64,000 nucleotides of DNA from Candidatus Omnitrophota bacterium (GCA_029261035.1 JAJDCD010000004.1:4765-68764); one strand, 5' to 3'. Shown: positions 16,166 through 23,458, counted from the first letter of the stretch. Notes: a model not told the origin generated them from the sequence alone. Translations and numbers: made by a program.

Positions 16166-16197
16166 GGTCCGTGACAGTCACTGAAGTGACAGTCACC
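16166..16197. repeat. GTGACAGTCAC palindrome pair (half-element) upstream of dnaE
   Basis: ttggtccgtgacagtcactgaagtgacagtcaccac; same unit recurs upstream of groEL, groES and the groEL paralog. Confidence 0.7.
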
Positions 16198-16271
16198 ACT
16201 AGCGCAACGCTGGTTTGTGATAACGTGTTCGATTAAATGCTGCTCTGTTGTCTGCAAGCCTTCAGGCTTGC

Positions 16272-17807
16272 TTATTCCCATTCAATTGTGGCAGGTGGTT
16301 TTGAAGATATGTCGTAGCAAACGCGGTTAATCCCTTTTACCTCGTTAATAATACGATTCGATATACGAGCCAAAACGTCGTAGGGCAACTTAGCCCAATC
16401 TGCTGTCATACCATCTTGGCTCGTTACTGCTCTAAAAGCCACAGCATTCTCATACGTTCTTTCATCCCCCATCACGCCCACACTTTGAATCGGTAGTAAA
16501 ACTGTAAATGCTTGCCATACTTTAGAATAAGTCTTCGAATTTCTAAGTTCTTCAATAGCAATATGATCTGCTTTCCTCAATAAATCACAGCGTTCTTTTG
16601 TGATATCCCCCAAAATCCGTACAGCAAGACCTGGGCCTGGAAATGGGTGCCTATCGATTAAATCACTATGAAGTCCTAATTTTCTTCCAATAACACGAAC
16701 CTCATCCTTAAACAATTCACGCAAAGGTTCTATTAATTTAAATTTTAAATCCTTAGGAAGTCCCCCAACATTATGATGACTCTTAATGACGGCTGTAGGT
16801 CCACCATGAGCAGAAACCGATTCGATCACATCTGGATAAAGTGTGCCTTGCGCTAAGTATTTTACTTTTCCAATCCTACGCGCTTCTTTAGCAAAAACAT
16901 CAATAAAAACATGGCCAATAATTTTTCGTTTCTTCTCTGGATCTGACACATTCTTTAATTTTTTCAAAAACAGATCTTCCGACTTAGCAACTTTAAGATC
17001 AATACGGTAATGTTTTTTAAATAAGTCGACAACAGCTTCTCTTTCATACAATCGAAGCAAGCCATTATCAACAAAAATTGCCTTCAATTGTTTTCCAATA
17101 GCTTTATGGATCAAAACAGCAGCAACCGAAGAATCAACGCCACCAGACAAACCTAAAACAACGTTATCTTTTCCAACGGTTTCTTTAATTTGTTTAATAG
17201 ATTCTTTAATAAAATTAGCGGGTGTCCAATTAGGCTTCAGCCCCGCAATACGAAACAAGAAGTTAGAAATAATCTTAGCTCCTTGAGGTGTATGAACCAC
17301 CTCTGGATGAAACTGAACACCATAAATTTTTCGTTTAGAATCTTTCATACTAGCGATAGGAGAATTAGAAGTATGTGCAAGTCGTTTAAACCCAGGAGGT
17401 AAACGATCAATATGATCTCCATGGCTCATCCAACAATTAAGCTTCTTCCCCAAACCATAAAATAAGTCTGTTCGATCATTCACTAAAAGAGCGGCTGGTC
17501 CATACTCTCTAAGCTTCGTTTTGCGCACCTTACCTTTAAAATGATACCCCAAGAATTGCATTCCATAACATATTCCAAGAACAGGAACACCTAAATCAAA
17601 AATGCGTTTATCAGGAAGAGGAGCTTTCTTTGCGTACACATTAGAAGGCCCACCAGAAAGAATAATAGCTTTTGGATTGATTTCTTTGATTTTTTTAAAA
17701 GAGATATTGTAGGGATGGATTAAACTAAAAACCTTGGCTTCACGCACTCTTCTAGCAATTAGCTGTGTATACTGTGAACCAAAATCTAGAATTAAAACTT
17801 TATCCAT
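16272..17807 (-). CDS. guaA: GMP synthase (glutamine-hydrolysing)
   Basis: N-terminal GATase ([25 protein letters not shown]) plus ATP-PPase SGGVDSSV motif; 511 aa. Confidence 0.9.
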
Positions 17808-17823
17808 TATTTTCTCTTGTCAT

Positions 17824-17940
17824 TGTAGCGCATAGCGTAGAGCGTTTAGCGGATAGAAAAACTAAAAGCAAAAACAAAACTCATAAAATCTATTTCTGAC
17901 CAAGGATCCTATACGCTCTACGCTAAACGCTACCCGCTAG
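17824..17940. repeat. inverted-repeat element (agcgtagagcgtttagcgg arms), family A copy 1
   Basis: Left arm tagcgcatagcgtagagcgtttagcggatag (17826-17856) and right arm ctatacgctctacgctaaacgctacccgctag (17909-17940); related copy at 23549-23640. Confidence 0.65.
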
Positions 17941-17943
17941 TTG

Positions 17944-19107
17944 TTATTTTTTTCCCATTCCAACTTTTTGTGCAGACTGAAAAACCTTACCTTCTGTTTG
18001 AATCGAAGGAGCAATAATAATTTCAGCTAATTGAAATTCTCTAATATTTTGAGCTCCAATATTTCCCATACAAGTTCTGATAGCCCCAACCAAGTTCTGA
18101 GTTCCATCGTCTAAACGTGCTGGCCCATAAAGAATTTCTTCCAAGGATCCAGTTGTTCCAACTCTAATACGAGTTCCTCTTGGCAGATTAGCGTGTGGCG
18201 TTGCCATTCCCCAGTGAAAACCACGACCTGGAGCTTCTTGGGTACGCGCAAAAGCAGAACCAACCATCACCCCATCCGAACCGGATGCAAATGCTTTACA
18301 AACATCTCCACCAGTAGACATGCCTCCGTCAGTAATAATAGGAACGTAACGACCTGTTTTCTTATAGTAGTATTCTCTTGCCGCAGAACAATCTACTGTT
18401 GCTGTAACCTGCGGAACACCAATACCCAAAACTCCACGAGTGGTACATGCCGCACCTGGCCCAATACCAATTAAGAGACCTGCTACCCCAGTTTCCATCA
18501 ACTCTAAACAAACCTTATATGTAACACAATTTCCAACCACAACAGGAATCTTAAGATCTTTACAAAGGTCGGCAAAATTAACAACCTGATAGGCTTTAGA
18601 AATATGTTTGACTGTAGTCACTGTAGATTGAACAAAAAAAGCATCACAACCCGCTTCTTCAGCAATCTTACCGAACTTAGGAGCGTTTTGAGGAATGGTG
18701 CTAACAGCACAAGTTACACCCGCTTTTTTAATCTCTTCTACTCTTTGACTAATTAATTTTTCCTGAATCGGTTTGGTGTATAACTTTTGAACTAATTCTG
18801 TAGCTCGCTCTGTACTTGCATCTGCAATTTCATTCAGAATAGATTCTGTATCTTCATAACGCGTTTGAATTCCTTCTAAATTTAAAACTGCAAGACCACC
18901 TAATTTTCCCATAGCAATTGCAAACTTAGTATCCACAACTCCATCCATAGCAGAAGCGATAACCGGAATATCTAACTCAACCCCACCTAAATTTAAAGAA
19001 ATATCTACTTCATCAGGATTCAAAGTCACATCCCCTGGAACCAATGCAATTTCATCAAAACCATAACAACGTCTAGCCTTACGACCTTTACCTAGCCACT
19101 CTGCCAT
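17944..19107 (-). CDS. IMP dehydrogenase-family protein lacking CBS subdomain
   Basis: TIM-barrel IMPDH/GMPR motifs incl. catalytic-loop GIGPGAACTTRGVLGIGVPQ; 387 aa is too short for a CBS pair; adjacent to guaA. Confidence 0.75.
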   Translation of the reverse strand: MAEWLGKGRKARRCYGFDEIALVPGDVTLNPDEVDISLNLGGVELDIPVIASAMDGVVDTKFAIAMGKLGGLAVLNLEGIQTRYEDTESILNEIADASTERATELVQKLYTKPIQEKLISQRVEEIKKAGVTCAVSTIPQNAPKFGKIAEEAGCDAFFVQSTVTTVKHISKAYQVVNFADLCKDLKIPVVVGNCVTYKVCLELMETGVAGLLIGIGPGAACTTRGVLGIGVPQVTATVDCSAAREYYYKKTGRYVPIITDGGMSTGGDVCKAFASGSDGVMVGSAFARTQEAPGRGFHWGMATPHANLPRGTRIRVGTTGSLEEILYGPARLDDGTQNLVGAIRTCMGNIGAQNIREFQLAEIIIAPSIQTEGKVFQSAQKVGMGKK

Positions 19108-21503: not shown

Positions 21504-21535
21504 TTTTCTTTCTCCTTTGTCTATCTGAGTTATAA

Positions 21536-21632
21536 GTTGGTCCGTGACAGTCACTGAAGTGACAGTCACCACGAAACTAATCTTTGTTATCAAATTTAAA
21601 AGTGACTGTCACCTTGGTGACTGTCACTTTTA
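21536..21632. repeat. GTGACAGTCAC x2 - spacer - GTGACTGTCAC x2 palindrome array between groEL and groES
   Basis: gtgacagtcac at 21545 and 21560; gtgactgtcac at 21603 and 21618; two halves are reverse complements, so it can form a long hairpin. Confidence 0.75.
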
Positions 21633-21666
21633 AGTACCTAAAAGCCAAAAAGATGCTTAGCACTTT

Positions 21667-23337
21667 TTAAAACATTCCTGGCATTCCGCCGCCCATACCA
21701 CCCGGCATTCCACCTGGCATTCCACCACCCATACCACCCGGCATTCCAGCTTCAGCCTTATCATCTTCTGGGATATCCGTCACAAGAGCTTCTGTCGTTA
21801 ACAACAATCCGGAAACGCTAGCAGCATTTTCAAGAGCAGAACGCGTCACTTTTTTTGGATCAATAATACCCGCTTGGATCATATCTTCATATTCTCCAGT
21901 CCCTGCATTAAAACCAAAAGAACCTTCTCCAGACAAGACCTTCTGTACCACTACAGAACCTTCCGCACCCGCGTTGGTTGCAATCTGTCTAAGAGGCGCT
22001 TGCAATGCTCGTTGAATAATACGAACACCTACTTGTTCGTCTGCATCTAATTTTAAGTTATCTAGAACAGAAGATGTTCTAAGAAGAGCAACTCCACCAC
22101 CGGGAACAATTCCTTCTTCCACAGCAGCACGGGTTGCGTGCAAAGAATCTTCGACACGAGCTTTCTTTTCTTTCATCTCAGTCTCTGTTGCTGCCCCTAC
22201 ATTAATCACAGCAACTCCACCTGCTAATTTCGCCAATCTTTCTTGAAGTTTTTCTTTATCATAATCAGAATCACTTTGCTCTATTTGAAGCTTAAGTTGT
22301 TCTACTCGATCTTGAATATCTTTTGAGCTACCAGCACCTTCAATGATTGTGGTGTTATCCTTATCAACAACAACTCTTTTTGCTGATCCCAAATCAGCTA
22401 TCGTAATATTCTCTAGCTTTACACCCAAGTCTTCAGAAATTGCTTTGCCACCTGTAAGAATCGCAATATCTTCTAACATCGCTTTTCTTCTATCTCCATA
22501 ACCGGGAGCTTTCACAGAACAAACATTAATCGTGCCACGAATTTTATTCACAACCAAAGTAGCCAATGCTTCTCCATCGGTTTCTTCAGAAATAATCATC
22601 AATGGTTTTCCTGATTTAGCAGTTTCTTCCAAAATTGGAAGTAAATCTTTCATTGAAGAAATTTTCTTTTCATAAATCAAAATAAAAGGGTCTTCAAGAA
22701 CTGCTTCCATCTGGTCTGTATCTGTTACAAAGTAAGGAGAAAGATATCCTTGATCAAACTGCATCCCCTCAACCACGTCTAAAGAAGTCGCTGTTGACTT
22801 TGCTTCTTCAACGGTAATCACACCATCTTTTCCAACTTTTTCCATTGCATCTGCAATTAAGTTTCCGATTTCAGCATCAGAGTTCGCTGCAATCGTAGCA
22901 ACCTGTGCAATTTCTTTTTTATCTTTAACTTCTTTTGTAAGCTTGCTAAGTGCTTCCGAAATGGCTCCAACCGCTTTTTCAATTCCTCTTTTAATAGACA
23001 TCGGATTTGCACCTGCAGTTACATTCTTTAAACCTTCACGATAAATGGCTTGAGCCAAAACAGTCGCTGTTGTAGTTCCGTCCCCTGCAATATCTGAAGT
23101 CTTAGAAGCTACTTCTTTTACCATCTGAGCTCCCATATTTTCATACGCATCATCCAAATCAATTTCTTTTGCAACCGTAACACCATCTTTAGTAATTGTT
23201 GGAGAACCAAATTTTCTATCACAAACAACGTTTCTTCCTTTAGGTCCTAATGTTACTTTTACTGCGTCGGCCAATTGATCCACACCACTTTGAATGGCCT
23301 TTCTTGCATCTTCATTAAATAATATTTGCTTTGCCAT
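21667..23337 (-). CDS. groEL: chaperonin GroEL (canonical, with C-terminal GGM tail)
   Basis: Cpn60 full length with [25 protein letters not shown] tail; CIRCE and promoter upstream. Confidence 0.9.
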
Positions 23338-23375
23338 AATTCTTTATCTCCTTAGATTTATTTCTATTTTAAACA

Positions 23376-23458
23376 TTGATCCGTGACAGTCACTAAAGTG
23401 ACAGTCACCACGAAACTAAACTTATTTAAGTGACTGTCACCTTGGTGACTGTCACTGG
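23376..23458. repeat. GTGACAGTCAC x2 - spacer - GTGACTGTCAC x2 palindrome array in groEL leader
   Basis: gtgacagtcac at 23384 and 23398; gtgactgtcac at 23430 and 23445; sits between CIRCE and the groEL start. Confidence 0.75.

Follow-up and report, generated by a model that had tools for sequence, protein, structure and literature searches.

The closest known counterpart of the elements described here is the REP/REPIN-RAYT system, represented by the repetitive extragenic palindromic (REP) sequences and bacterial interspersed mosaic elements (BIMEs) of E. coli with their transposase TnpA-REP (YafM), and by the REPINs (inverted REP pairs) of Pseudomonas fluorescens. Such systems (Bertels & Rainey 2011, Nunvar 2010, Ton-Hoang/Messing 2012) have to our knowledge been studied almost entirely in Proteobacteria. 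We use the terms REP, REPIN and REP-associated tyrosine transposase (RAYT) as defined in the literature, where REPIN-associated RAYTs are described as single-copy and vertically inherited (PMC3116915, PMC5581495, PMC3479197, PMC3733652) and where most REP families are limited to one or few species (PMC3733652). A second point of comparison is the IS200/IS605 family of insertion sequences (IS), in which a Y1/HUH enzyme recognises the imperfect DNA hairpins that mark the ends of the element (PMC6006769). The subject of this analysis is a set of palindrome arrays built from the 11-mer GTGACWGTCAC in a 64 kb stretch of a Candidatus Omnitrophota genome (hereafter the window, within which all repeats of that genome were counted), where they lie before three chaperonin genes and before dnaE. 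A first-pass annotation had suggested that they could be an operator or an RNA processing/stability element. We conclude, with a probability of roughly 0.85, that they are REP/REPIN elements, i.e. dispersed hairpin repeats; the dispersal of the family and its position around RAYT genes in other genomes point to ordinary small mobile DNA and not to a chaperonin-specific control site.

Repeat copies in the window and hairpin anatomy

The exact 11-mer, arranged in GTGACAGTCAC palindrome arrays, occurs 13 times in the window against 0.00 expected from 100 dinucleotide-preserving shuffles, and the repeat is thus real at the four places named in the first-pass annotation. All 13 cores are extragenic, at three sites before chaperonin genes and one before dnaE (Table 1), and each module is situated between a preceding stop codon or promoter and the following start codon, as had been claimed. 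The unit is a doublet, comprised of two 11-mers around a loop of 3-7 nt, which folds as single-stranded DNA or RNA into one imperfect hairpin of 10-12 bp (10 bp for the 26-nt doublet of the window) with a central A.A or T.T (U.U) mismatch. Two inverted doublets separated by about 20-30 nt (21 or 32 nt in the window), with 26-nt arms that are 88-92% complementary, make up what had been called the module and is a REPIN. The half-module reported upstream of dnaE, two 11-mers 4 nt apart, was recovered and is a REP singlet; its predicted fold is -15.8 kcal/mol and its flanks, GTG... and ...GGACCAAC, are those of the other copies. Single doublets with their flanks fold at -14.5 to -20.2 kcal/mol, and the GTGAC modules as RNA at -45.6 to -47.3 kcal/mol, with z-scores of -7.5 to -7.9 for the two intact modules and -3.7 for the degenerate one, in agreement with the long RNA hairpins proposed earlier. 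The REPIN in the 5' untranslated region (5'UTR) of groEL-A spans 73 nt, has 26-nt arms of 92% complementarity (-45.7 kcal/mol, z -7.9) and leaves the Shine-Dalgarno sequence uncovered. The module before groEL-B, rightly called degenerate, retains three exact 11-mers plus GTGACTGTCCC, and its first pair is 19 nt apart, not 4, an expanded loop in one doublet.

The modules had also been called identical, which they are not: the loops are TAAA or TGAA, and the spacers differ as given above. In alignment A1, however, all four copies in the window are bordered beyond the palindromes by TAGTTTCGTG on one side and by GGAYCAAY on the opposite side, and these common non-palindromic flanks point to common descent, that is, to copies of one element and not to independently evolved binding sites.

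A fifth module, overlooked in the first-pass annotation together with a perfect CIRCE (controlling inverted repeat of chaperone expression), was found by allowing two mismatches. It belongs to a sister family, has the layout of the GTGAC modules with compensated cores, and folds at -53.8 kcal/mol (z -7.3). Doublets with the same GGGACWGTCCC core are also present in the closest relative with available DNA (locus L112) and in the Omnitrophota metagenome-assembled genome (MAG) JACQQR01. Each of the six successive intergenic regions between dnaE and the giant gene upstream of groEL-A contains strongly structured palindromes, of the GTGAC type in four cases and of other families in two.

Sequence variants reveal which symmetry is kept. 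Among the mutated positions of 40 distinct variant doublets, 22 are compensated only between the arms, preserving the hairpin, as opposed to 6 compensated only within an arm, preserving the dyad; the hairpin-only class comes from at least four genomes, and its count is inflated by repeated copies within one genome. The remaining positions are compensated both ways (14) or not at all (45, i.e. decay). A variant from the Omnitrophota locus L114, GTGCCTGTCAC...GTGACTGGCAC, illustrates the rule: each 11-mer has lost its own symmetry while the pairing between the two persists. Flanking bases beside the core are complementary more often than in shuffled sequence (0.81, 0.58 and 0.56 vs. 0.64, 0.42 and 0.44), and the genomes taken together show a 5' flank rich in A and a 3' flank rich in T, prolonging the stem. 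Flank conservation among 154 oriented doublets is limited to R at -1 and Y at +1. Because pairing between the arms is kept more than the dyad, the conserved object is a hairpin in a single strand, which fits recognition by an HUH/Y1 enzyme and argues against the four dyad-symmetric protein-binding sites in duplex DNA that had been suggested for each module.

Dispersal in other genomes and the associated RAYT gene

A doublet scan with one genome per species yielded at least 111 loci; the taxon names used here are the labels carried by the database records. In JACQQR01 (49% G+C) there are at least 54 clusters in about 43 fragments, mostly single doublets with a TAAA or TTTA loop and with short flanks that are often complementary in the form of an A-run and a T-run. 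The doublet, usually as GGTGACWGTCACC-GAA/GCA-GGTGACWGTCACC, recurs in MAGs labelled Actinomycetes (about 70% G+C), Isosphaeraceae, Acidobacteria, Gaiellaceae, Chloroflexi-type and others, and the core is invariant across genomes of 37-74% G+C. In loci of at most 56% G+C, 67 of 71 clusters fall outside called open reading frames (ORFs) and 4 inside, where 86% of the bases are coding; the neighbouring genes are co-directional in 35 cases, convergent in 7 and divergent in 9.

Among the 111 motif loci listed, one has groEL and one has dnaE, so the doublet has no association with gene class and the proposed chaperonin- or replication-specific element finds no support. Random scatter in the manner of an ordinary miniature inverted-repeat transposable element (MITE), which the first-pass annotation had regarded as fatal to its proposal, was indeed found in related genomes, while the window's own genome was seen over 64 kb. 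The apparent enrichment at chaperonin genes within the window (3 of 4 loci among about 21 intergenic regions) was set aside as post hoc and is not supported by the comparative data. The viral contigs scanned contained no doublet and thus gave no sign of a phage vector. A metagenome scan for the window-specific REP with its flank (GTGACTGTCACTTYAGTGACTGTCACGGAYCAA) gave 0 matches, and a scan for the doublet with a CAAAG loop gave 12 loci.

Some copies elsewhere differ in position or arrangement. In locus L083, from a MAG labelled Isosphaeraceae, four GTGACTGTCAC units (6792-6960) lie about 70 nt upstream of dnaE, in the same relative position as the window singlet; as there is one such case per genome in two genomes, and another repeat in L112, we treat this as coincidence or an insertion hot spot. 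Longer tandem arrays of the 11-mer occur in L059 (7063-7230), L043 (4037-4110) and L085 (2203-2290), in place of simple doublets; such arrays repeat every 27 nt or so in Actinomycetes MAGs and every 15 nt in an Oscillospiraceae MAG.

A tblastn search with E. coli YafM (an approximate sequence, used as a probe only, with the matches verified independently by Pfam, NCBIfam and PDB) identified ORFs between doublets in L029 (Actinomycetes label), L082 (Omnitrophota) and L028 (Isosphaeraceae label). All three exceed the Pfam cut-off for Y1_Tnp (PF01797), and their best NCBIfam match is NF047646, REP-associated tyrosine transposase, at 88.9, 70.7 and 53.1 bits, respectively (cut-off 80). The three proteins are 29-34% identical to each other. 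The sole PDB match of the Omnitrophota protein is 4ER8, TnpA-REP (E 0.005). The Omnitrophota protein has 83 homologues, of which all those with a taxon name are from Omnitrophota, and one is labelled RayT by JGI (Joint Genome Institute). By PF01797, by NF047646 as best family and by 4ER8, the associated protein falls in the REP-associated Y1 clade.

The motif is present on both sides of the Y1/RAYT gene in all seven loci examined (L028, L029, L082 and L114-L117, five of them from Omnitrophota). The gene lies directly downstream of an intact comM/yifB-like Mg-chelatase gene in L082, L114, L115 and L117, and next to a comM fragment in L116. In Omnitrophota the downstream motif copy, TGTCCC(C)AAAA-GTGACTGTCAC, overlaps the RAYT stop codon. 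In keeping its position and being surrounded by dispersed hairpins, this small Y1 gene matches the published REPIN-associated RAYTs (PMC3116915, PMC5581495). As to the details of this overlap, the TGA stop codon of the Omnitrophota gene (5028-5648 in L082, about 3001-3640 in L114-L117) lies inside the downstream GTGACTGTCAC, and the conserved carboxy end ...CPQK is encoded by TGTCCCCAAAA within the repeat. A further locus, L005, has comM and a doublet, with only a comM fragment in place of the RAYT gene.

The family thus shares with REP/REPIN systems a short imperfect palindrome that forms a stem-loop (the 26-nt doublet lies within the usual range of about 20-40 nt), an extragenic position both in the window and elsewhere, the occurrence of singlets besides inverted pairs that give a longer hairpin, and the presence of several sequence families within one genome. 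In other genomes its hairpins lie on either side of a small HUH/Y1 gene and enclose no partner gene; in Omnitrophota this HUH/Y1 gene holds a conserved position beside comM. It differs from known REPs in that each hairpin arm is itself a near-palindromic 11-mer, so that the hairpin is a direct repeat of a dyad with a central W.W mismatch, in its hosts, which are Omnitrophota and MAGs labelled Actinomycetes and Isosphaeraceae instead of Proteobacteria, and in having the same core at RAYT loci whose proteins have diverged to the extent given above. Literature searches with the 11-mer and a 13-mer returned only unrelated primer or oligonucleotide matches, and the 11-mer was not found in a REP context in the searchable literature. 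The IS200/IS605 subterminal hairpins and their non-autonomous derivatives, the palindrome-associated transposable elements (PATEs), are likewise served by a Y1/HUH enzyme of the same Pfam family, PF01797, and mobilisation as single-stranded DNA would be a further likeness. Unlike IS200/IS605, however, the present family shows no tnpB partner, its hairpins are dispersed without the gene, and the Y1 gene keeps to one position adjacent to comM, which does not resemble a repeatedly transposing IS.

Orthologous chaperonin loci and competing explanations

The L112 locus (GroEL 86% identical) is fully syntenic with the window, and 21.7 kb of its 2.17 Mb contig were compared. Upstream of groEL-A it has the promoter and CIRCE but no module, whereas in the window these are followed by the GTGAC REPIN. 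At the groEL-A/groES junction both genomes carry a GTGACWGTCAC module of the same layout. The groES/groEL-B junction contains a different palindrome, GGTACCWGGTACC, in L112 as opposed to the degenerate GTGAC REPIN of the window; after groEL-B, L112 has a GGGACTGTCCC doublet, and the window an ordinary terminator-like hairpin followed by an unrelated palindromic repeat; and before dnaE there is an unrelated inverted repeat in L112 in place of the GTGAC singlet. L112 and three further relatives (L118, L119 and L120) keep the unusual arrangement groEL-groES-groEL together with one CIRCE, which precedes the first groEL at the same position in all four. L119 has a GTGACTGTCAC doublet directly past the groEL-A stop codon and another upstream of the promoter, while L118 and L120 have unrelated hairpins at the chaperonin junctions and L120 has none after groEL-A. 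A strong hairpin of whatever sequence family therefore follows the groEL-A stop codon in four of the five genomes compared. As orthologous junctions hold different elements, the element type turns over between species, and the 5'UTR copy, absent from L112, is an insertion specific to the window's lineage.

According to the operator hypothesis the 11-mers are sites through which a dimeric regulator other than HrcA controls the chaperonin genes jointly with dnaE. The 11-mers are all near-perfect dyads, the pairs are spaced 15-16 bp centre to centre and modules stand upstream of four start codons, all of which would suit such a regulator. Nevertheless, this hypothesis is already largely refuted by the comparative data and we regard it as highly improbable: L112 has no module in its groEL-A 5'UTR and unrelated palindromes before groEL-B and dnaE, only two of the 111 motif loci listed are near groEL or dnaE, variants such as that of L114 give up the dyad for the hairpin, elements are found in every kind of intergenic region, even past the ends of convergent genes, the copies in the window have non-palindromic flanks in common, as expected of transposed copies, and three of the four sites lie inside what reads most simply as one operon controlled by CIRCE. 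CIRCE itself resembles the modules in being an inverted repeat between promoter and groEL that is transcribed into the 5'UTR, but the modules do not match its TTAGCACTC-N9-GAGTGCTAA sequence, and CIRCE, unlike the GTGAC module, holds its position in all relatives compared. With turnover in L112, dispersal, hairpin-preserving variants and RAYT flanking, the further regulator considered in the first-pass annotation is not supported. A classical MITE, derived by deletion from an IS of the DDE-transposase type and recognisable by its terminal inverted repeats and target-site duplications, would also be small, extragenic, inverted-repeat and present in several copies. We consider this origin scarcely tenable, since no direct target duplications are seen at the copy boundaries (alignment A1), lone doublets occur and are the commonest form in JACQQR01, the associated gene is of the Y1/HUH and not the DDE type, and the viral contigs were free of doublets.

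A third possibility is that the modules are dedicated RNA elements (terminators, attenuators, or stabilising or processing structures) that set the ratio of groEL-A, groES and groEL-B products, their repetitiveness being incidental. In its favour, the hairpins predicted for the RNA have high stability, a single CIRCE and a single good promoter serve three genes, the hairpin after groEL-A recurs in most relatives irrespective of its sequence, and roles in terminating transcription and stabilising mRNA have been hypothesised for REPs (PMC3733652). In addition, A-rich 5' and T-rich 3' flanks extend the stem across genomes, and the doublet at 21602-21627, 35 nt past the groEL-A stop codon, has A4 and T4 flanks that make it terminator-like on the transcribed strand (-20.2 kcal/mol with flanks). 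Compared with Rho-independent terminators, however, only this doublet of the window has a T-run (TTTTAAATTT), and the terminator scan flagged its inner stem only; the other window doublets lack a T-run even though 3' flanks are T-rich across genomes. An origin as dedicated RNA elements is unlikely, because it leaves unexplained the invariant core over 37-74% G+C, the central mismatch and the RAYT association, because copies also lie in the 5'UTR and upstream of dnaE, where a terminator would be harmful, and because L120 does without a hairpin after groEL-A. Strict terminators in particular were rejected, as divergent intergenic regions (9 clusters) carry doublets about as often as convergent ones (7). 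What is left of this explanation is a possible secondary role for REP elements. We place the family among the REP-RAYT systems and reject the operator idea.

Several observations weigh against the REP/REPIN assignment. Neither the 64 kb of the window nor the 21.7 kb compared from L112 contains a RAYT gene or its usual neighbour, comM; the window offers four loci and one variant in 64 kb, with RAYT seen only in other genomes, and two of the three RAYT candidates (L082 and L028) score below the NF047646 cut-off. The family may be low-copy in the window's lineage: three of the four GTGAC-type loci are inside one 2.4 kb chaperonin cluster, and the exact CAAAG-loop doublet occurs once on the 2.17 Mb contig of L112, at groEL-A/groES, although this match does not measure the copy number there. 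The presence of the same type of REPIN at the groEL-A/groES junction in the window and L112, and of a doublet in L119, could reflect selective retention or an insertion hot spot. Finally, unlike the GTAG- and CGTC-tagged REP super-families (PMC3733652), the elements have neither tag, and no conserved tetranucleotide accompanies the 154 doublets; the string GTGAC is absent from the text in which those super-families are described (Di Nocera 2013).

If the modules are REP elements, RAYT would bind and cut the hairpin in single-stranded DNA and thereby spread copies to extragenic sites, by analogy with TnpA-REP and the IS200/IS605 enzymes (PMC3479197, PMC6006769). The copies at the chaperonin genes and dnaE would then be insertions into tolerant intergenic DNA of a co-oriented run of genes, and their uniform orientation may mirror the uniform orientation of genes and replication in this segment. 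Since one promoter and one CIRCE serve groEL-A, groES and groEL-B, the REPINs are presumably transcribed; hairpins of about -45 kcal/mol would then arise both in the 5'UTR of groEL-A and between cistrons, and the A/U-flanked doublet after the groEL-A stop codon might terminate transcription in part or hold up 3'-exonucleases. Some general function between cistrons, in RNA stability or attenuation, is plausible, and strong hairpins unrelated in sequence stand at the same junctions in relatives.

The unchanged core in Omnitrophota, in Actinomycetes- and Isosphaeraceae-labelled MAGs and in several further phyla, together with three RAYTs that are about 30% identical, suggests a more speculative scenario. 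In it, REP and RAYT form a deeply conserved pair, the Omnitrophota RAYT has been domesticated as a single-copy gene fixed beside comM, its stop codon inside a REP, and in the window's lineage a retained groEL-A/groES REPIN and a newer copy between CIRCE and the ribosome-binding site have been co-opted to tune the heat-shock operon. We offer this only tentatively and think it rather doubtful. For annotation of the window the REP/REPIN assignment removes a false lead, namely that of a new operator for heat shock or replication. In a wider context, a family from an uncultured phylum, with a core common to MAGs labelled as other phyla and a RAYT at a conserved locus, provides a comparison for RAYT domestication and vertical inheritance, and is useful for asking how tightly enzyme and hairpin co-evolve. 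The REPIN that separates CIRCE from the Shine-Dalgarno sequence in the window, and that L112 lacks, lends itself to testing how such an element affects the expression of a well-understood operon.

Gene context and minor features of the window

Some 31 genes lie in the window, along with about 21 intergenic regions that are 40 nt or longer. The best named relatives of GroEL-A are nearly all from Candidatus Omnitrophota/Omnitrophica. The three chaperonin genes are most simply read as one operon under CIRCE, which lies 14 nt directly upstream of the 5'UTR module, and HrcA/CIRCE, present once upstream of groEL-A, is the recognisable regulator of the locus. The features discussed above are collected in Table 1.

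Table 1 Repeat modules, chaperonin and dnaE genes, and control sites of the window
Feature	Position	Strand	Remarks
dnaE	12705..16139	-	1144 aa; start 16139, not ORF-caller start 16199; Pfam domains seen in the L112 orthologue
REP singlet (half-module)	16171..16196	.	two A-type 11-mers, 4 nt gap; 31 nt upstream of the dnaE start at 16139
groEL-B	19478..21064	-	528 aa, 65% identity to groEL-A
Degenerate REPIN, groES/groEL-B junction	21105..21205	.	three exact 11-mers and GTGACTGTCCC with a mismatch at 21179
groES	21216..21503	-	95 aa; start 21503, end 21216
Full REPIN, groEL-A stop to groES start	21544..21627	.	whole-module fold -45.6 kcal/mol
groEL-A	21667..23337	-	556 aa, GGM-repeat tail; start 23337, end 21667
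Full REPIN, groEL-A 5'UTR	23383..23455	.	two inverted REP doublets, 21-nt spacer; between CIRCE and Shine-Dalgarno
CIRCE operator	23470..23496	-	perfect match to TTAGCACTC-N9-GAGTGCTAA; sole CIRCE of the window
Best sigma-70-like promoter of the region	23506..23533	-	TTGACG-16-TAGAAT, 10/12 matches, consensus match only; just upstream of CIRCE
Fifth module, sister family	47632..47731	.	GGGACAGTCCC twice, then GGGACTGTCCC twice, GGGACWGTCCC cores; between birA-like and coaX

The repeat units extend called ORFs in frame, giving starts at 16199 (dnaE), 21148 (groEL-B) and 21593 (groES), so that ORF callers add a spurious 'VTVTSVTVT' leader to these genes. The in-frame reading VVTVTSVTVTDQ, to which the first-pass annotation had attributed inflated starts, therefore applies to three of the four downstream genes but not to groEL-A. 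A possible REP-made promoter (GTGACT-16-TAAAAT, 23393-23366, 9/12 matches) was not used as evidence, such matches being fewer than expected from shuffled sequence. On the minus strand, a terminator-like hairpin at 19412-19439 (AAGGGGTTCCC...GGGAACCCCTT followed by TTTTTTT) is situated about 40 nt past the groEL-B stop codon; hairpin and T-run suggest that the chaperonin transcript ends there and not at the REP elements.

Other palindromic families are found nearby. A second one (TAGCGTAGAGCGTTTAGCGGATAG and its complement) fills the intergenic region between guaA and a gene resembling that of inosine monophosphate dehydrogenase (17825-17939), and a related copy lies upstream of the groEL-A promoter (23590-23650). 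Hairpin repeats of the type GTCATTGCGAGG...CCTCGCAATGAC follow groEL-B (19280-19389), and GTCATTCCCGTGTAGACGGGAATC and GGATCCCCGCTTTCGCGGGGATGAC occupy the region between two giant genes (38040-38100); units similar to these two families are present upstream of groEL-A in L112. Over 28 nt (38030-38057) the window matches the groES/groEL spacer of the JACQQR01 locus L105 exactly. At its gathering thresholds, Rfam gave no match at the modules across the whole window, the sole match being the bacterial class A RNase P RNA at 3644-4024 on the minus strand (287.5 bits).

Three giant ORFs, all on the minus strand, cover 23642-37777 (4711 aa), 38107-45807 (2566 aa) and 53199-63713 (3504 aa), and the L112 orthologue of the first contains TIM, PPDK_N and PEP-utilizer domains. 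In the more distant relatives L118-L120 the genes for biotin ligase and coaX (in two of the three also one for a 165-aa protein) lie directly upstream of groEL-A, preceded by alr in two. This gene order suggests that the giant genes were inserted between coaX and groEL-A in the window's lineage.

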